Part shown: positions 8,403 to 23,559 of the stretch, in pieces
Position numbering within the stretch: the stretch's first letter is position 1
Layout of the letters: each line of letters opens with the position of its first letter
Virus record (IMG/VR): IMGVR_UViG_3300031553_000024
Span: 1-31,032 of that record
DNA from: a virus
Lineage: Duplodnaviria; Caudoviricetes
Strand: one strand, 5' to 3'
Length of the DNA stretch: 31,032 nt
Program-made: the position numbers and the translations under genes
Notes under the pieces: generated by a model
What the model was told of the DNA's origin: nothing
Database searches by the model: none
The model's input: only the letters and a program-made list of their open reading frames with translations

Positions 8403-9257
8403 GTGTGGTTCGGGGGCAAAGGGAATATGAGAGCGAAGCTGCTTCCTCTTTTCCCGCCTCACCACACCTATGTCGAGCCCTTCGGCGGCGCCGCCTCGAT
8501 GCTGTTCGGCAAGAAACCGTCGCCGGTCGAGGTCTACAACGATCTGGACTCGGGGCTGGTAGAATTCTTCCGCGCCCTCCGGGATCCCGAACAGGCAAAA
8601 GAGCTACAACGGCTCGCCTCACTCACGCCCTATGCACGGGAGGAATATGACTACTGTCGAGCCCACTGGCAGGAGGAGACTGACCCTGTGCGGCGCGCCT
8701 GGCAGTGGTTCGTCGTGGCGAGGATGTCATTCGGCGGCCATTTTGGGCACAGTTGGGGCAGCGTCGTCACCCTATCGAGGTCCGGCAAGGCCGCCACGGC
8801 GAGTCCATGGCTGTCCGCCATAAAGGGCCTGCCCGAAGCCCACGAACGGCTTATGCGGGTGCAGATAGAGCATCAGGACTGGCAGACCATCCTGGAACGC
8901 TATGACACGCCAGAAACGCTGTTCTACTGCGACCCGCCGTATGTGCATAGCACGCGTTCTTCTGGGAAATATGATCACGAAATGACGGATGAAGATCACG
9001 AGATGTTCATCGCCAAGTTGTTGGAGACTGAGGGCATGGCGGTCGTGTCCGGGTATGAACATCCGATTTACCGCGCGCTGGACGATGCCGACTGGAAACG
9101 CTATGAATGGCAAACTGTCTCTTTTGCAGCAGCCAAAACGCGGGCCACAGGGATCCAGGGCAAGGGGTCTGCGCTGCGCATGCAGCCGCGTACCGAGGTG
9201 GCCTGGGTGAAGCCCTGGGCTATCGAGCGATTGCCACTGTTCGCGAATGGGCGATGA
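8403..9257 (+). CDS. dam: Dam-type (D12 class) DNA adenine methyltransferase
   Basis: WFGGK, YVEPFGG, EVYNDLD, FYCDPPY, VSGY motifs. Confidence 0.92.
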   Translation: MWFGGKGNMRAKLLPLFPPHHTYVEPFGGAASMLFGKKPSPVEVYNDLDSGLVEFFRALRDPEQAKELQRLASLTPYAREEYDYCRAHWQEETDPVRRAWQWFVVARMSFGGHFGHSWGSVVTLSRSGKAATASPWLSAIKGLPEAHERLMRVQIEHQDWQTILERYDTPETLFYCDPPYVHSTRSSGKYDHEMTDEDHEMFIAKLLETEGMAVVSGYEHPIYRALDDADWKRYEWQTVSFAAAKTRATGIQGKGSALRMQPRTEVAWVKPWAIERLPLFANGR

Positions 9258-15002: not shown

Positions 15003-15635
15003 ATGGCTAGACCGGTCTTTGTGGTCGGCATGCACCGCAGCGGCACCAGCATGGTGGCAGGGATATTGGCGCATCTGGGGATTCCCATGGGGCATAACCT
15101 GACAGCGGCAGACTGGTCCAATCCATATGGTCATTATGAGGACAAACAGTTCACGGCCATCAATCGGGACGGCTTGCGGGCAGCCGGTGGAGACTGGCGG
15201 CATCCGCCCTTGCCTTGGGCGATTAGCGGCGCGGGCATGGCCTCCCGGGCGCGTGAATATATCGCCCGGCGGGAAGAAGATATAGGAAAGGATGCGTACT
15301 GGGGTGCTAAGGACCCACGCATGGCTCTAACGCTGCACGTTTGGTTGCCATTGCTGGGCGGGGCACGATGGATTATTGTTAGGCGTCCTCTAAATGAAAT
15401 CTGCGCCTCACTCGCGAAGCGGAATCAAATGCCGGAGTCGGAGGCAATAGAGCTTTGGGCGCATTACATCGCAGCGATTAGCCTCGGGCTGATTGATGAA
15501 TCAGAAGCGGATGTGTGCGTCGCGCATTATAAGGAGATCACTGGGGAGCCACGCCAGGGCGTCGAGAGGCTCGCCGAGTGGCTTGGGGTTCCTTGTACCG
15601 AAGAGGCGATTCAGCATGTGAGGAGAAAGCAATGA
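15003..15635 (+). CDS. sulfotransferase family protein
   Basis: VVGMHRSGTS (PAPS 5'-PSB loop), GHYED, WGAKDPR, R.P....ASL. Confidence 0.85.
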   Translation: MARPVFVVGMHRSGTSMVAGILAHLGIPMGHNLTAADWSNPYGHYEDKQFTAINRDGLRAAGGDWRHPPLPWAISGAGMASRAREYIARREEDIGKDAYWGAKDPRMALTLHVWLPLLGGARWIIVRRPLNEICASLAKRNQMPESEAIELWAHYIAAISLGLIDESEADVCVAHYKEITGEPRQGVERLAEWLGVPCTEEAIQHVRRKQ

Positions 15636-16246
15636 GCGTTCTGCCAGTCGTAATGGTGACACCGGCCTTGCCAGAATCCGCCATAAGGCGTTGGGGTGAC
15701 GAGGAGATATTGGAGCAGATCGTAGTCTGGGATACGAAATGTCAGCGCTATACAAGGACAGTGAATCGAGGCATTCGGATAGCATTGCAGCGAGCACGTG
15801 CGGATGTTTACGATAAGGAACTGGAATATATCTTATTGGCAAATGATGATTGCCAGCCACAGACGGCCAATTGGATCGCAGAGTTGATCTGGGCTATGGC
15901 TCAGAACGAAAGCCTGGGCTATGTCGCACCGGGCCAGCCATGCCGCACCGAAGGGATGATGGAAGCGACAGGGCCAACCGAGACACCCCAAATCAAGGAA
16001 ATATTCGCTGTCCCCTTCGGATGCGTGCTGATTCGGCGCAGTGTCTTTAGGGACGTCGGCTTATTGGATGAGAGATTCCGGCACTATGCGTCGGATACGG
16101 ATCATCAATATCGCGCCAGGGCGTTTGGCTGGAAGAGCGCATGGTGCCCACATGTCTGGGTTGATAGGGAGGCACATGCGCCAAAACTAATGGACCTATG
16201 GCAAGAGGACCGAAAGTTATTCTATGGGCGGTGGGGCAATGAGTGA
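15632..16246 (+). CDS. glycosyltransferase, GT-A/GT2-like
   Basis: VNRGI, LLANDD, CVLIRRSVFRDVGLLDERF..Y.SDTD...RA...GW. Confidence 0.85.
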   Translation: MSVLPVVMVTPALPESAIRRWGDEEILEQIVVWDTKCQRYTRTVNRGIRIALQRARADVYDKELEYILLANDDCQPQTANWIAELIWAMAQNESLGYVAPGQPCRTEGMMEATGPTETPQIKEIFAVPFGCVLIRRSVFRDVGLLDERFRHYASDTDHQYRARAFGWKSAWCPHVWVDREAHAPKLMDLWQEDRKLFYGRWGNE

Positions 16247-16919
16247 GCATCCGATAGTGGTCGTGGCGCCGCTCAACTTGGGCATGATTCGCCCCGAGCT
16301 CGCCTATGCTATAGCACACTGGGTGTTGACTGGGGGCGACAGACTTCGAGTGCTCATAGATCCCGATGCCAACAGCAAGCCCACAAGCGACAATCGCAAC
16401 CGAACCTGTTCGCGGTTTTTGGCGCACCCCGACAAGCCCGAGGTATTGTTCATGATAGACGCGGACATTGCGGCGCCGAGCCCGATACCATATGCGCTCA
16501 AGATGTGCGAACAGGATAGGCCCTACGACATCATCGGGATGCTCTGCCCTGCGTGGCAGCCCATAACGTATCCGGATGCGCCGTTGCGGTGGATGGCGTT
16601 CGACCTTTCGCCAGAAGGACGACTCGTGCAGGACAAAGCGAAACTGAATGCCCCCGGGCTATTGCGTTGGGACCTGGTTGGCTCGGGGGCGCTTCTGATC
16701 CATAGACGCGTGTTAGAGGACCCAAGCATGGCGGCGCCTTTTGCAGACCGTTTCGATGGACGGGGATTCAGAGTGAGCGGCCACGATTTTGAGTTTTGCC
16801 GAAGGGCCGGCATGGCCGGATACAAGACCTGGGTGGCAATGGACGCAAGGTGTGGTCATCAGGTGACGGTGGACTTGACGGATGTGGCCCGGGTCTTGGC
16901 GCATGCTGAGCAGCACTAA
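16239..16919 (+). CDS. glycosyltransferase, GT-A-like
   Basis: NRN...FL, FMIDAD, VGSGALLIHRRVLE, GHDFEFCRRA...G, CGH. Confidence 0.8.
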   Translation: MSEHPIVVVAPLNLGMIRPELAYAIAHWVLTGGDRLRVLIDPDANSKPTSDNRNRTCSRFLAHPDKPEVLFMIDADIAAPSPIPYALKMCEQDRPYDIIGMLCPAWQPITYPDAPLRWMAFDLSPEGRLVQDKAKLNAPGLLRWDLVGSGALLIHRRVLEDPSMAAPFADRFDGRGFRVSGHDFEFCRRAGMAGYKTWVAMDARCGHQVTVDLTDVARVLAHAEQH

Positions 16920-19174: not shown

Positions 19175-20992
19175 GTGCCAGGGAGCCTCGCAGTGACCAT
19201 CAAGCCGAACCTGTTGGGGCGCGTCTTGCGTTATGCCATTGACGGCGTACGTTATGGGGCCCGAGAGAACGACAAGACGAATACGTCGGCGGCGGGGATG
19301 TACGGCCTGCCATTGCAGGCGCATAGCAAGGCGTCGCGTTGGCAATCGGATGCCGTTGACACTGATGCGGCATATCGCAATGCTGTCTGTGCATCCTGGG
19401 TCTATGCCGATCTGATGCTCATCTCGCGGCGAATCGCTTCTGCCAAATGGGAGGTGAAGGACCGCCAGGGCGAGGAGCTGATTGATCTGGGGAACCATCC
19501 CTTTGAGCGGCTCTGGGCCAGGCCGGGCGGGACATTTACGGGTGGGCTGCTCGCTCAATATCTCACGTGGTGGTACTTGCTTCGCGGGGAGGCCTTCCTA
19601 TTCGTGAGCTCGGATGCTCCTGGTCGCGGTGAGCCCAGGGAGCTATGGCCCCTGGTCGCTAGTGCCTGCAAGCCCAATGTCGAGACCTTGCGCAAGAGTG
19701 CCCTGACGGGCATGCCGATTGTGGACTACGCCTACAATGTGGGCAATGAGTCGTTCCTCCTCCCCGGCGAGAACGTCGTGCATTTTCGCACGCCGAACCC
19801 ATTCGATTATTGGCGGGGGCTCTCACCCCTGAGCGCGGCAATGGACGGCATCACCCTCGATTTGGGCGCGCGTCGGTGGCAAAGAGACTTTTATCGAAAC
19901 GATAATGCTATCCCCGCCGCCGTGGTGAGCTTACCGGAAAACATGCTGCCAGTGGACTTTGATCGCATTACGGCGCACATCCAACAAGACATTCAGAATG
20001 GCAAACGCCTGTTCTTTACGCGGGCGGGCGGTCTTTCCGTAGATGTGATCCAACAGGCCATGGCGGATATGCAGTTTGTCGAAAGCCGTGCCTTTACCAA
20101 GGGAGAAATTGATAAGATATACGGCGTTCCGACCGGCCTCCTGGACGGGGGCAATTCCGGTGATGCCCAGCAGGCCATAGAAATCACTTTCGGGCGTAAC
20201 ACGGTCCAGCCGATGCTCGATTATTTCGCAGATGAGCTGACCGCCAAGGTCGGGCCATTCTACGGCGAGGGGATCGTTATCGCCGCGCCTTCCGTGGTCC
20301 CGCAAGACCGGTCACTTGAGATAGCGGAATATCAAGCATACAGCAGGGACCGGACGCTGAACGAGAATCGGGCCGAGCGGAGCCTGGCCCCGATAATGGG
20401 GTTCCCAGCCCAGATTGGCGACCTGGACATCACAGATGTCCCCGTCCGGCTTTTGGAACTTTTGCCGCCAGGCTCGCTTGTGTCCACCATGGCAGGGGCA
20501 GCAACGCCAGCAGTGACAACGCCACAGGCGAACACCCCGGCCGTCGGAGATGACGTACCTATAGCGAGCTTGCCCCAACTTGAGGCGCCGTCCGCGGTTA
20601 CCGCCTCTACACTGGCCGAAAAGGCGGCTCAGCTTGGTATAGCGACTGAACTCAAGCGCTGGGAGCATGTGGCGGCTAAGGAGATCAAAGAGGGGCGCGC
20701 GCCTGGGGAACGCGCCTTTGAGAGTGATGTGCTCCCGTCGGGCCTGAAGGAAGGGATTATGCAAGCCCTCACTTTGGCGGACACAGAGGCAGATGTGCGC
20801 GCGGCTTTCCAGTCGCCCTTTTTTCGCCAAAGCCGTCCGAGAGACGGCGAGCGGGGAAAAAGACCCGAACGCGGACGCGAAGGATCAAGACGAGACGAAA
20901 CTGGAACGGACTCTGCGGCTGTCGTTGGGCCAACAACTGCGTCGGGTTCTAGCACTCCTGGGATGGCCCCCGGACATAGCGGGGCTCAGTGA
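19175..20992 (+). CDS. portal protein (start may be GTG 19193)
   Basis: HPFERL..RP, LRGEAF, VVHFR.PNP.D..RGLSPL, F..NTVQP; follows TerL. Confidence 0.92.
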   Translation: MPGSLAVTIKPNLLGRVLRYAIDGVRYGARENDKTNTSAAGMYGLPLQAHSKASRWQSDAVDTDAAYRNAVCASWVYADLMLISRRIASAKWEVKDRQGEELIDLGNHPFERLWARPGGTFTGGLLAQYLTWWYLLRGEAFLFVSSDAPGRGEPRELWPLVASACKPNVETLRKSALTGMPIVDYAYNVGNESFLLPGENVVHFRTPNPFDYWRGLSPLSAAMDGITLDLGARRWQRDFYRNDNAIPAAVVSLPENMLPVDFDRITAHIQQDIQNGKRLFFTRAGGLSVDVIQQAMADMQFVESRAFTKGEIDKIYGVPTGLLDGGNSGDAQQAIEITFGRNTVQPMLDYFADELTAKVGPFYGEGIVIAAPSVVPQDRSLEIAEYQAYSRDRTLNENRAERSLAPIMGFPAQIGDLDITDVPVRLLELLPPGSLVSTMAGAATPAVTTPQANTPAVGDDVPIASLPQLEAPSAVTASTLAEKAAQLGIATELKRWEHVAAKEIKEGRAPGERAFESDVLPSGLKEGIMQALTLADTEADVRAAFQSPFFRQSRPRDGERGKRPERGREGSRRDETGTDSAAVVGPTTASGSSTPGMAPGHSGAQ

Positions 20993-22535
20993 TGCCATCT
21001 TCTGGTCGGCGGAATTGCAAGAGGTCGTGCGGATACTCCGGCCCGAGTTGGAGCGTATGGCCTTGGTAGCGGCGGCGACAACCTATGCAGCCCTGCCCGT
21101 GGGCGTGGACTGGGCGCTAGTGGCTCTCGATGCAGCAGAATGGGCGACGACCTATAGCTATGATCTAGTGACGGGCTTGAACGAATATAGTCAGAAGGTT
21201 TTGCGCCAGAAGGTGCCACAGTTCATAGACACGCCGGGGCAGACGATTGGCGACCTCCGACGCGAGCTAACGCCGACGTTCGGCCCGCAACGCGCCGAGA
21301 GTATCGCGGTGACCGAGGTTACCCGAGCATATGGTGAGGGCGAGCGCATGATGGCAGCGCGGGCCCAGGAGGCGGGATTAGAACTCACGGCCTACTGGCA
21401 GACAGTGAAAGACGAAAAGGTGTGTCCTCTCTGTGCCCCCCTGGATGGGCAGCCGCAAAACAGGTGGGCTGAACTCTCGCCAGGCGCGGACTGGGTGCCT
21501 CGGCATCCAGGATGCATTCTACCCGGGAATATAGTCATAGTGCCCGGGGGCGCGGAAGCGGCAGTGCAATCGTTCTATGTCGGCGGGGCGGTTGAGATGC
21601 GTCTTGAGAACGGGAGCAGGCTCACCGTTACCAAGAATCACCCGATATTGACGGGGCGTGGCTGGGTTGCGGCTGATGTCCTTCGCGAGGGCGATTATAT
21701 ATTCTACGGCGGCAGCGCCCAAGGGATAATGTTTCCCGTCGACCCAAACGACCAAGAGGTGCCAGCCGCTGTTGAGGATATATATCGTACGCTCAAAGAA
21801 TCGGCTGCGATGGCGACCAAACGCATGCCACTTGCCACCGAAGACCTCCACGGCGAGGGCGCTTGCATCGAGGGCGATGTCAATATTGTATATCCCAAGA
21901 GCATATTGTGCGATGGGGATAAGCCCGTGGGCAGCCAGCCCGGTGGCCAGCGTGCGCTCTACAGGGCTAATGGTCAACAGCCGGCTCTGGCGGGTTTGGG
22001 CCTGATGGCGCCGTTCCTCCCACGACGGGATGCGCCCGACATTGGCGGCATGGGCGGCTCTAACCTGGGCCTCTCGCTGAAGAGCAGACATCCGGTCCCA
22101 TTTGAGGTGTCCGGCCAGGCTGCGGCCGCGAGGAGTAATATCCGCCTTCAACAAGCGACGGCGGAAAGTCGAGCGATTGGCCCCGGCCTCATGCGCGAGG
22201 GCATTCTCAGACTCTCCGGCCAAATAGCGGGCCAACAACAAGTCGAGCCCAGGAATAGCGATCCGGTCGCGCTGTTGGCCTCCCGTCGGCAGCCGTGGCA
22301 ATCCCGCGCGACGGAAGCGCCCGAGGATCGTATTGGCATGACAGCCATACTCCAGGGCCAGCTGACTGGCAGTCTCGCCGGCCATATAGCGCCGATGCAA
22401 ATCGTAGATGTTCGGCATTTCGACTATTCGGGACATGTCTATGACCTCCAAGCTGGTGTGGGAGGGATATACATGGCATCTGGGGTGATTGTCAAAAACT
22501 GCAGATGCTTCATTGTCCACAGATGGAAGGCATAG
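20793..22535 (+). CDS. MuF (SPP1 gp7-like) minor head protein, intein-containing
   Basis: RAESIAVTEVTRAY, W.T..DEKVCPLCAPLDG; the P.HPG|CRC motif is split by the intein. Confidence 0.88.
   Translation: MCARLSSRPFFAKAVRETASGEKDPNADAKDQDETKLERTLRLSLGQQLRRVLALLGWPPDIAGLSDAIFWSAELQEVVRILRPELERMALVAAATTYAALPVGVDWALVALDAAEWATTYSYDLVTGLNEYSQKVLRQKVPQFIDTPGQTIGDLRRELTPTFGPQRAESIAVTEVTRAYGEGERMMAARAQEAGLELTAYWQTVKDEKVCPLCAPLDGQPQNRWAELSPGADWVPRHPGCILPGNIVIVPGGAEAAVQSFYVGGAVEMRLENGSRLTVTKNHPILTGRGWVAADVLREGDYIFYGGSAQGIMFPVDPNDQEVPAAVEDIYRTLKESAAMATKRMPLATEDLHGEGACIEGDVNIVYPKSILCDGDKPVGSQPGGQRALYRANGQQPALAGLGLMAPFLPRRDAPDIGGMGGSNLGLSLKSRHPVPFEVSGQAAAARSNIRLQQATAESRAIGPGLMREGILRLSGQIAGQQQVEPRNSDPVALLASRRQPWQSRATEAPEDRIGMTAILQGQLTGSLAGHIAPMQIVDVRHFDYSGHVYDLQAGVGGIYMASGVIVKNCRCFIVHRWKA
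21513..22499 (+). mobile_element. intein (329 aa) in MuF
   Basis: N-terminus CILPGNIV; block B LTVTKNHPILT..GWV.A..L..GD; block F VYDL; C-terminus GVIVKN followed by a Cys +1 extein. Confidence 0.9.
21519..22436 (-). CDS. antisense endonuclease: tandem HTH plus DUF559/Vsr-like PD-(D/E)XK domain (305 aa)
   Basis: GGAGG 8 nt before ATG 22436; two HTH repeats; SPVE..L...QY..G.Y.IDIA....LAVEV.G..WH...GW..L.VW. Confidence 0.8.
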   Translation of the reverse strand: MSRIVEMPNIYDLHRRYMAGETASQLALEYGCHANTILGRFRRAGLPRLPTGGQQRDRIAIPGLDLLLARYLAGESENALAHEAGANRSTFRRRLLKADITPRGRSLAGHLKWDRMSALQREAQVRAAHAANVGRIPSWEERRHQAQTRQSRLLTISPVERTLATGLAAHGLIPIAQYALGIYNIDIALDASALAVEVFGGKWHAFGRHRSRFFERTIYILNSGWHLLVVWVDGKHYPLGAAAVEYIIALAKDISRNPATPRQYRVILGNGEPAPVLKTHLNRPADIERLHCRFRAPGHYDYIPG

Positions 22536-22538
22536 GCT

Positions 22539-23021
22539 GTGTCTTATCACATTGAGGTAAGGGGTCTTGGGCTCTTAGATCGGGTGCTGGGCGAATTGGC
22601 AAGCGCGTCCTTTCTGCGTCCGGCTCTGCTGGCCATAGCGTCCGACCTCAAGGCTCGCGTGGCCCCCTATCCCCCGGCAACAGGGGCGAATCGCGCCAGG
22701 GCGTGGCGTTCGGGGGCAAATAATACCTGGTATGAGAGACATTATGGGCCTCGGTGGGCGCGCAAAGACGGGAGCGTCGGCGGGCGACAGACATCCCAAG
22801 CGCTCGGCCAGCGATGGACATATCGCGTGGAGCCGCGCAAGGCCATCATTGGCAATAATGCAACGTATGCGCCCTACGTTCAAGACGAAACGAAGCAGGC
22901 GGGATTCCACAAGGCCCGCGGTTGGCGTACGGCCCAAGGCGTCATACGCGAAGCGCTCCCGAGCATTCAGGCGGGGCTGGAGAACTATGTGCGGGATATT
23001 CTAAGGAGACACGGGGCATGA
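22539..23021 (+). CDS. virion morphogenesis / HK97 gp10-like protein
   Basis: IIGNNATYAPYVQ...Q...H..RGW.T; follows MuF. Confidence 0.65.
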   Translation: MSYHIEVRGLGLLDRVLGELASASFLRPALLAIASDLKARVAPYPPATGANRARAWRSGANNTWYERHYGPRWARKDGSVGGRQTSQALGQRWTYRVEPRKAIIGNNATYAPYVQDETKQAGFHKARGWRTAQGVIREALPSIQAGLENYVRDILRRHGA

Positions 23022-23311
23022 AACCAGCGGGAAGACCGATCAAGTGTGCTCATTGTGCGCATAGCTGGGCGTATGTTCGCGATGATGCGCTATATGTTTA
23101 TCAGCGGCACAACGGCGAGACGCACGAAAATCGGATCACTATCCCAGAACTAGAGGCGCTTTTTGTGGAACGATATGTTTGGTATACCATAGGACTGGAT
23201 ATATACCACAACTGTCGGCCGTTTGCCGAGCGCCGCCCGGCCACAAGCATTTCGCGCGGGAAGTGGCAATGCGTCCATTGTGGCGCGATATGGGATGTGT
23301 TCCCACAATGA
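23018..23311 (+). CDS. zinc-ribbon hypothetical protein
   Basis: CAHC, HNC and CVHC; ATGA-coupled. Confidence 0.55.
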   Translation: MKPAGRPIKCAHCAHSWAYVRDDALYVYQRHNGETHENRITIPELEALFVERYVWYTIGLDIYHNCRPFAERRPATSISRGKWQCVHCGAIWDVFPQ

Positions 23312-23559
23312 GTCTATATAATGATCTGATGGAGATGCTGGCGAGGGATCGACGGCGGCATAATTGGGAATGGGTAATGCCCCTCACGCAATGGGAACTA
23401 TTACGGAACGCGCGATTCAGCGACGATGCCCCGGCGCCCTGGACCGGGGCGAAGGTAATTCAACCAAGTGTAACGGCAGCGGCCGGTACCATCTTGGGCC
23501 ACGCGGTCATCATAGATAATAATGCCGCGTGGCTTGGGTTGGTGTTGAGGCCGGGCTAA
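23308..23559 (+). CDS. hypothetical protein
   Basis: ATGA-coupled ORF. Confidence 0.5.
   Translation: MSLYNDLMEMLARDRRRHNWEWVMPLTQWELLRNARFSDDAPAPWTGAKVIQPSVTAAAGTILGHAVIIDNNAAWLGLVLRPG

Follow-up and report, generated by a model that had tools for sequence, protein, structure and literature searches.

The stretch analyzed here is IMG/VR virus record IMGVR_UViG_3300031553_000024 (31,032 bases; the window means this whole record), whose + strand carries a terminase-portal-MuF-neck-capsid cluster. The MuF minor head gene of this cluster is interrupted by an intein, and a second gene runs antisense through that intein in the same codon register. Our analysis indicated that the intein is predicted to be self-splicing, that the antisense gene encodes a putative Vsr-like homing endonuclease which likely spreads the intein, and that the splicing domain likely includes a sense-strand segment lying opposite the nuclease core. 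Taken as a whole, we regard this reading as probable. Intein block names, the class 1 splicing mechanism and the sigma-70 consensus are used below as general knowledge.

The MuF Intein and Its Splicing Domain

The host gene and the intein comprise the following features (pLDDT, predicted local distance difference test).

20793..22535, + strand: MuF (SPP1 gp7-like) minor head gene (Pfam, TIGR01641), interrupted at H-P-G^C-R-C; true start uncertain
21513..22499, + strand: class 1 intein, 329 aa, with Cys1, Thr40/His43, Asp311, Asn329 and Cys+1; penultimate residue Lys, not His
21513..21716, + strand: Hint N-part, residues 1-68, without the usual I-E-x-L segment (pLDDT 84-98)
21630..21641, + strand: block B, T-K-N-H, opposite the last predicted nuclease strand
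21903..22379, + strand: linker, predicted mostly disordered, shadow of the nuclease N-terminal half (pLDDT <50 for residues 131-269)
22380..22499, + strand: Hint C-part, residues 290-329, with blocks F and G (pLDDT 91-98)

The MuF open reading frame (ORF) matched Pfam Phage_Mu_F PF04233 (E 2e-8) and TIGR01641 (E 2.2e-6). The original prediction, made from the window alone, had placed the intein at 21513-22499 on the + strand as 329 aa running from Cys1 to Lys-Asn/Cys, and these coordinates were right. The intein matched Pfam Intein_splicing with E 2.4e-8, a match that falls short of the curated cut-off. C1, T40, H43 and N329 were invariant across 86 sequences and Cys+1 was present. The structure model displayed the Hint fold, with 112/144 residues aligned to the Mtu RecA intein (2imz; Z 12.7, root-mean-square deviation (rmsd) 2.5). 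The residues and the predicted fold are those of a class 1 intein that is predicted to be self-splicing. An uninterrupted H-P-x-C-x-C, the empty site, was found in 94/103 shorter MuF relatives, and the empty-site sequence proposed earlier agreed with the intein flanks.

Profile searches of the + strand gave no LAGLIDADG or HNH family match, as had been noted by eye. An in-frame endonuclease on the + strand was rejected, the intein middle being predicted disordered. The absence of an endonuclease motif thus stood; the middle is not all filler, since residues ~81-130 are under sense selection (see below).

The intein N-part is 20-30 residues short before block B. The distance from Cys1 to the block B Thr was 39 residues, as compared with 56-99 in 133/136 control inteins. 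Among the three short-N controls, two were mis-called starts and one retained I-E-K.

The Antisense Gene and Its Predicted Fold

The antisense gene was divided as follows (HTH, helix-turn-helix).

21519..22436, - strand: antisense gene, 305 aa; predicted HTH-HTH-helical linker-Vsr-like nuclease
22308..22409, - strand: predicted HTH unit 1, residues 10-43, absent from short (~250 aa) relatives
22146..22247, - strand: predicted HTH unit 2, residues 64-97
21669..21977, - strand: predicted Vsr-like nuclease core, residues 154-256, with Glu160, Asp186, Glu197 and His204
21633..21650, - strand: predicted last nuclease strand, residues 263-268, opposite block B (pLDDT 92 for 261-270)

The limits given earlier for this ORF (22436 to 21519, 305 aa, codon-aligned with the intein) were reproduced, and its stop is formed by intein codon 3 (CTA), 6 nt inside the intein. 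The two proteins are paired codon by codon, residue j of the nuclease with residue 309-j of the intein, and the CAT of His308 in GHVYDL supplies the ATG. The ribosome-binding site reported for it was also found, as GGAGGT at 22449-22444 ahead of the ATG. From stop to stop the antisense frame is longer (351 codons) and offers a GTG at 22550; this start was rejected because relatives begin at the block F His and codon bias favours the ATG at 22436. A search with the antisense protein gave 36 matches including itself at E <= 1e-3, the 35 relatives being 36-57% identical, and the 36 database proteins start at the position of ATG 22436. A full-length antisense gene was annotated in none of the four cultured-phage records examined. 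The three cultured-phage records that were parsed had an intact ORF from the block F His behind a Shine-Dalgarno-like sequence.

The model of the antisense protein had a mean pLDDT of 87.0. It aligned with Vsr (1cw0; Z 11.2, rmsd 2.3, 116 aligned residues), NGO0050 (3hrl; Z 9.5) and I-Bth0305I (3r3p; Z 9.3, rmsd 2.5, 95 aligned residues), and its N-terminus had HTH structure matches. HTH families matched the nuclease homologues as well, with no NUMOD family among the 25 of 33 families listed. Foldseek gave no match at E <= 0.001 for the nuclease model or the intein model, and a single-sequence search of the PDB gave no match. E160, Q177, Y183, N184, D186, E197, G200, R216 and W225 were invariant in the 36 sequences, and H204 was present in at least 90% of them. 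Profile alignment with Vsr and NGO0050 placed D186 and H204 at the Vsr Asp and His and E197 at Vsr Phe62; as to the last Asp of EDxHD, the Asp of NGO0050 aligned to a Phe of the antisense nuclease. The two HTH repeats and the Vsr-like nuclease first read from the letters were therefore borne out by fold prediction and profile alignment.

Distribution of the Family

Scans yielded 213 nuclease loci, the two large scans contributing the best 80 of 573 and the best 80 of 416. Among the fetched loci, 190/213 consisted of a complete intein and an antisense gene in codon register. The other 23 were left out, 10 without a block A/B call and 13 without a block F call; those inspected comprised contig ends, pattern misses and two loci (L181, L213) without an intein frame opposite. 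Dereplication at 85% identity gave 132 elements (set T1), of which 30 came from a genome scan using the core motif only. A further collection was picked on the sense block B motif alone; 112/120 of its loci had an antisense nuclease match, and the 52 complete elements formed set T2. The controls were 148 loci with canonical block B motifs, 28 of them with parsable blocks F and G and 24 after dereplication. About 1,100 stored stretches of the family were estimated in IMG/VR, and 111 cultured-phage records matched it. Homologues in Gordonia phage MuF genes were 34-35% identical.

Some members differed in host gene or layout. One element (L011) was in a DNA polymerase-like host protein, and in two others (L625, L632) the host protein, by eye a prohead protease, had K-A-x-x-R-N-V-A-x-T-N before the intein. 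Large proteins with 4-5 matching stretches (P0142, P0143, P0145) suggest more than one family intein per gene. The intein of L027 had lost Cys1 by a short N-junction deletion and its nuclease was intact. At L181:2459-3175, a nuclease homologue in a phage head cluster had no open intein frame opposite and is possibly free-standing or escaped.

Both Strands of the Same Codons Are under Selection

The antisense stop lay past block B in 132/132 elements of T1 (in 128 of them inside the intein), in 30/30 of the genome subset and in 50/51 of T2. Codons that read as an antisense stop were used for 0/512 Leu and 0/314 Ser of intein residues 31-68, compared with 14% and 11% in the N-extein. The antisense frame from block B to B+28 was open in 132 elements of T1 against 75 expected, and in 8/24 controls. 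The nuclease region as a whole held 3 antisense stops in ~28,000 codons, and the antisense frame was broken in just 1/67 complete elements.

The comparison of nonsynonymous and synonymous change (dN/dS) in both frames, proposed with the original prediction, was made on 43 independent pairs (median identity 63%), with transitions and transversions pooled by stratum and no saturation correction. In block B the sense ratio was 0.33 and the antisense ratio 0.56; the strand after block B had 0.55 (sense) and 0.60 (antisense). The corresponding values for the nuclease core were 0.72 and 0.45, and those for the nuclease N-terminal half 0.85 and 0.52. Baseline antisense ratios were 0.98 in the extein and 0.89 in blocks F-G. 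Both strands were thus constrained in block B and in the strand after it, and the middle evolved as an antisense protein. Helix 241-256, the last of the Vsr-like core, is encoded opposite the Hint G-D strand, and the predicted strand 263-268 that follows is encoded opposite block B. Judged by these substitution patterns, the antisense ORF is a gene under selection, and both strands show selection on the same codons.

Expression Signals in Blocks F and G

The candidate signals for the antisense gene are listed below.

22444..22449, - strand: Shine-Dalgarno GGAGGT, from the D-L-Q codons of block F; shows codon bias
22466..22471, - strand: predicted -10 box TATATC
22490..22495, - strand: predicted -35 box TTGACA, 18 nt away from the -10 box and written in the I-V-K codons of block G

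The predicted start is provided by a His before V-Y-[DN]-L, found in 110/132 elements of T1 and 41/52 of T2 and in 1/24 control inteins. This His was encoded by CAT in 99/110 (T1), 36/41 (T2) and 15/21 (genome subset) cases, compared with 353/767 for extein His, while the Gly, Val and Tyr codons beside it varied freely. Where the start His was lost, a CAT occurred two codons off in 11/22 elements, compared with 2/110 otherwise. The Leu codon within the Shine-Dalgarno sequence was CTC in 112/125 (T1) and 29/45 (T2), compared with 20% in exteins.

The predicted promoter of the window, TTGACA-18-TATATC, ends 29 nt before the ATG. In 45/182 elements a sigma-70-type promoter matched at 11/12 positions or more, compared with 1.6 (maximum 6) in 200 synonymous recodings. 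At least 10/12 matches were found in 62/182 elements, compared with 9.5 under synonymous recoding, and in 0/24 controls. The penultimate residue of the 182 elements was His in 100, Lys in 39 and Ser in 33, the window intein having Lys328. Penultimate His is usual in class 1 inteins and is not obligatory. Among the copies with penultimate Lys, 30/39 spelled TTGAC on the other strand, and the loss of penultimate His likely occurred because block G spells a TTGAC -35 box there.

These biases indicate that an antisense start, a Shine-Dalgarno sequence and a sigma-70-type promoter are written into blocks F-G, where they are presumably used. In the C-terminal splicing region, the earlier statement that even the splicing blocks are dual-coding stood only for the first strand, up to His308; elsewhere in blocks F-G the minus strand carries expression signals. 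From the promoter we infer, as originally proposed, that nuclease expression may be decoupled from late MuF expression.

A second promoter type was seen in T1 and T2 copies ending in I-I-T-H-N; in these, an extended -10 box resembling TGTGTTATAAT often stood 45-48 nt ahead of the ATG.

A Selected Sense Module opposite the Catalytic Core

One further feature is needed here.

21753..21902, + strand: sense module, residues 81-130, with V-E-D-I-Y (87-91) and E-D-L-H-G-E-G (110-116), opposite the nuclease core

Excess codon sharing among 183 elements was 0.00-0.02 for residues 131-285 and 0.10-0.16 for residues 81-130. Within the module, sense constraint peaked at I87-E88-x-x-F91 and at E-D-F-H-G-D-G (110-116). 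The latter lies opposite the nuclease strand x-[VI]-A-V-E, where the Val before Glu197 was GTG in 148/153 cases, compared with 177/1166 in the linker, and the Ala was GCC in 165/174, compared with 43%, retaining sense H-G. The preceding residue was GTC in 87/88 Val and ATC in 77/79 Ile. Third bases of nuclease Y183, N184, D186, G200 and G201 were free, and two intein-less nuclease homologues did not follow the codon pattern. Sense Asp115 (93%) and Gly116 (75%) were kept though their third bases varied, which points to a constraint on protein and not on DNA. In the intein model the module had a pLDDT of 89-97, compared with <50 for 131-269.

Shortened members of the family kept the module. From 150 proteins 164 inteins were parsed; eight were <240 aa, two of these being mis-parses, and the module was retained in all six real ones (161-232 aa, query included). 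L539, a mini-intein of 161 aa, has four antisense stops and lacks the start His; having been picked on E-D-F-H-G-D-G, it provides independent evidence by its I-E-D-V-F only. In L283, an HNH gene in another minus frame replaces the first half of the Vsr-like gene, with the sense frame open and the module kept. The HTH region is missing in L212 and the module is kept. A targeted scan for short-N inteins without the module (~45-55 codons from block B to F, one Asn codon) found none among its 14 matches, which were 11 full-size family members (V-[FY]-[DN]-[FL] variant), two canonical long-N mini-inteins and one non-intein. One long DNA pattern for the module had no match, and an Atlas search with the mini-intein named generic Hint clusters only.

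Natural short-N mini-inteins of 161-183 aa, too short for a nuclease, were observed at L539:1210-1692 and in P0159, P0208 and P0183.

Covariation analysis (313 sequences, effective number 236) recovered pairs expected for the Hint sheet (26-303, 28-301, 2-327). The top 11 pairs also included the module-Hint pairs 20-116, 87-312, 20-119 and 5-88. The odds that the module has a structural role in the splicing domain are about even to somewhat better. The N-part is 20-30 residues short, and the module is selected and predicted to be folded. What the splicing domain has lost is likely made good by this segment. If the module does lie in the splicing domain, as is likely, the two genes would be interlocked.

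Distribution of Filled and Empty Alleles

A Jerseyvirus allele was matched by 498 phage records, 70 of which covered at least 80% of it, and 7 filled and 8 empty alleles of the Jerseyvirus group were compared. Three Jerseyvirus inteins were 100% identical over 816 nt, with exteins 88.7-96.6% identical. The intein was closer than the extein in 21/21 pairs of the group, and filled alleles were scattered among empty ones in the extein tree. These cultured Jerseyviruses thus show a homing-like pattern in their sequences. Together with the fold, the antisense selection, the start, Shine-Dalgarno and promoter signals and the empty alleles, this pattern supports the earlier proposal that one homing element has its splicing function on one strand and its nuclease on the other.

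One empty Jerseyvirus allele, L495 (PP856710.1), had a changed insertion site, H-F-G^C, and an extein closest to filled alleles; it is possibly nuclease-resistant.

Proposed Mechanism and Implications

We propose that host RNA polymerase likely starts at the sigma-70-type promoter in blocks F-G and produces an antisense mRNA, which would be translated from the His308 codon. The nuclease, as its predicted fold suggests, would use its HTH units for binding and would cut or nick the empty site, H-P-x^C-R-C, in a phage infecting the same cell. Repair would then copy the intein into the empty allele, a step suggested by the allele patterns. The late MuF precursor, which has the required residues, is predicted to splice by the class 1 route, and residues 81-130 would likely pack on the Hint domain in place of the missing I-E-x-L segment. 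If the module is needed for splicing, the nuclease core could not be deleted without harming splicing, and decay to a mini-intein would be slower.

A fuller version has about an even chance of being right. It supposes a widespread intein family with a rearranged Hint domain, in which the segment after block A was lost and replaced by the module behind block B, opposite the nuclease active site. Two working cores would then share codons, the penultimate His would have given way to the promoter, and the element could lose no more of its nuclease than the DNA-binding half.

If the module belongs to the splicing domain, the element would be a natural example of a single run of codons that encodes a folded domain on each of its strands. 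The overlap would be available in hundreds of sequences and in cultured phages, making the origin and cost of antisense overlap testable, and it would provide a way for a homing nuclease to resist its usual loss from the intein. The short-N family members also point to natural mini-inteins with an unusual Hint layout.

Contrary Evidence and Alternative Explanations

Several observations count against the proposal of a splicing intein spread by its antisense nuclease and sharing codons with it. Some concern sampling. Because the elements are related to one another, the counts lack independence. In the viral and metagenome profile scans the search motif lay opposite block B, a choice that favours overlap; therefore, the genome subset and the sense-picked set were used as well. 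Others concern the window itself, where the intein lacks penultimate His and the -10 box matches only 4/6 positions. A promoter tool found 0 sites, because it accepts only -10 boxes with T at position 6. Dual coding by itself makes inteins diverge more slowly, and recombination of exteins could mix the extein tree.

The best-surviving alternative accepts the same antisense homing element and places residues 81-130 outside the Hint fold, as a DNA or RNA signal or as a small separate insert merely keeping the precursor soluble. When the module was compared by profile with 97 canonical Hint N-regions, no similarity emerged (probability 0.4%), and descent of the module from that segment is therefore not claimed. 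Structure alignment did not reveal a packing site for the module; VIA-align covered only 101-117 residues of the best Hint structures, roughly what the N- and C-parts add up to. F-H-G-D-G was missing in at least four full-size copies, and the mini-inteins had been found with module-bearing queries. The covariation couplings were unstable, half-sample ranks varying from 2 to 651 for 5-88 and from 7 to 299 for 87-312 among 11,506 pairs, and coupling 20-116 came largely from 25 sequences with one shared pair, likely a clade effect. The confident prediction of the module could partly mirror nuclease covariation. However, the constraint on Asp115 and Gly116 is at the protein level, all six real short derivatives retain the module, and the top couplings join it to Gly5 and Leu312, the latter outside the nuclease ORF. 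On balance, a module outside the Hint fold appears unlikely.

Less probable still is that the antisense protein is real but has ceased, in this copy or lineage, to be a homing nuclease, being instead a DNA-binding regulator, a nickase or a decaying vertical relic. The last Asp of EDxHD was not conserved, with none between His204 and Arg216 and with Glu (42%) or Lys (33%) at position 215; we therefore filed the protein as Vsr-like and EDxHD-related, not as a proven EDxHD member. The nuclease His was missing in seven Jerseyvirus-group copies and 11 further copies, and vertical patterns are described for some VSR-like cases in the available text of a 2025 preprint (Gosselin, Arsenault and Gogarten; bioRxiv 10.1101/2025.01.02.630785). 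A non-homing protein fits poorly, however, with the invariance of Glu160, Asp186 and Glu197, the antisense ratio of the core, the near absence of broken frames and the identical inteins within divergent exteins.

An antisense ORF that is a mere shadow of sense codon use, as long codon-aligned antisense frames common within the window, a weak Pfam score (E 5.5e-5, under the cut-off) and the lack of any PHROG or NCBIfam match might suggest, was rejected as extremely improbable in view of the confident nuclease fold, the start, Shine-Dalgarno and promoter bias, the open antisense frame and the two-frame ratios of the element middle.

Flanking Genes in the Window

A second record was identical to the window record across 5,915 bases. 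The original prediction had called the antisense gene the only convincing minus-strand gene in the window. This is consistent with the other minus-strand ORFs, of which 14 had no Pfam and eight no PHROG match; it is not proven by them, the nuclease also lacking a PHROG match.

The portal and MuF frames share 200 nt (20793-20992), and a -1 shift at CCCTTTTTT (20816-20824) would join the two. PHROG 2662 matched the portal part and the MuF part alike at this overlap, and the second record had identical bases there, including CCCTTTTTT. In a quick slippery-site test at portal-MuF overlaps, the N-extein frame reached at least 500 codons in 18/132 relatives. Elsewhere, a DNA methyltransferase gene and two glycosyltransferase-like genes were located at 8403-9257 and 15578-16919, and a small ORF at 23179-23559 had a weak capsid match (E 0.005).

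Comparison with Known Systems

Contiguous inteins with an anti-sense VSR-like homing endonuclease have already been described in actinobacteriophages (Gosselin, Arsenault and Gogarten; bioRxiv 10.1101/2025.01.02.630785), and the novelty of the opposite-strand layout implied by the original prediction was overstated. As far as the available text of the preprint goes, those cases share with the MuF element a contiguous intein, an anti-sense VSR-like nuclease, a long helical N-terminal part and matches to 1CW0 and 3R3P, and minor capsid proteins are among the hosts of such non-canonical inteins. The secondary ORF there typically lies outside the splicing domain (a description, not a definition), whereas here, in nearly all copies, its start is in block F and it extends across block B. 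The family found here is far wider than the actinophages of the preprint. Its main text, in the parts available, makes no mention of promoter, ribosome or start codon, and a shortened Hint domain or a sense module is not described in the text sections covered. A literature search, mostly outside subscription journals, found nothing relevant to the module or the F-G signals beyond the preprint. Anti-sense LAGLIDADG inteins (Gorbalenya, 1998, as cited in the preprint) likewise have an opposite-strand nuclease gene in a full intein, with another nuclease fold, and evidence of spread is reported in the same text for anti-sense LAGLIDADG copies in actinophage minor capsid genes.

The EDxHD enzymes, as presented in the portions of the two reports covered (I-Bth0305I, PMC3239194; the Vsr-like family of fractured genes, PMC2677866), also have a C-terminal Vsr-like domain after an N-terminal DNA-binding part. 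The antisense nuclease and these enzymes have in common an Asp and a His at the Vsr catalytic positions and a Glu at Vsr Phe62, the Glu being invariant in the Vsr-like homing family (PMC2677866). In contrast, the last Asp (D222 of I-Bth0305I, D97 of Vsr) has no counterpart in the antisense nuclease. EDxHD enzymes use NUMOD repeats; the antisense nuclease has predicted HTH units, and Taylor et al. (PMC3239194) allow that their NUMODs may span an HTH. EDxHD genes are found inside a group I intron or, on the same strand, between the halves of a split intein (PMC3239194, PMC2677866), whereas the gene here is antisense in a contiguous intein. ShiLan-type HNH insertions, to the extent described in PMC11855218, likewise hide a homing nuclease, which is read in a different frame from the in-frame insertion that carries it within a phage gene; their HNH enzyme is out of frame and, unlike the intein here, the insertion has no splicing domain. 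Beyond the known layout, the present family adds its breadth, expression signals placed in blocks F-G, and a sense module under selection through which the two genes likely depend on each other.

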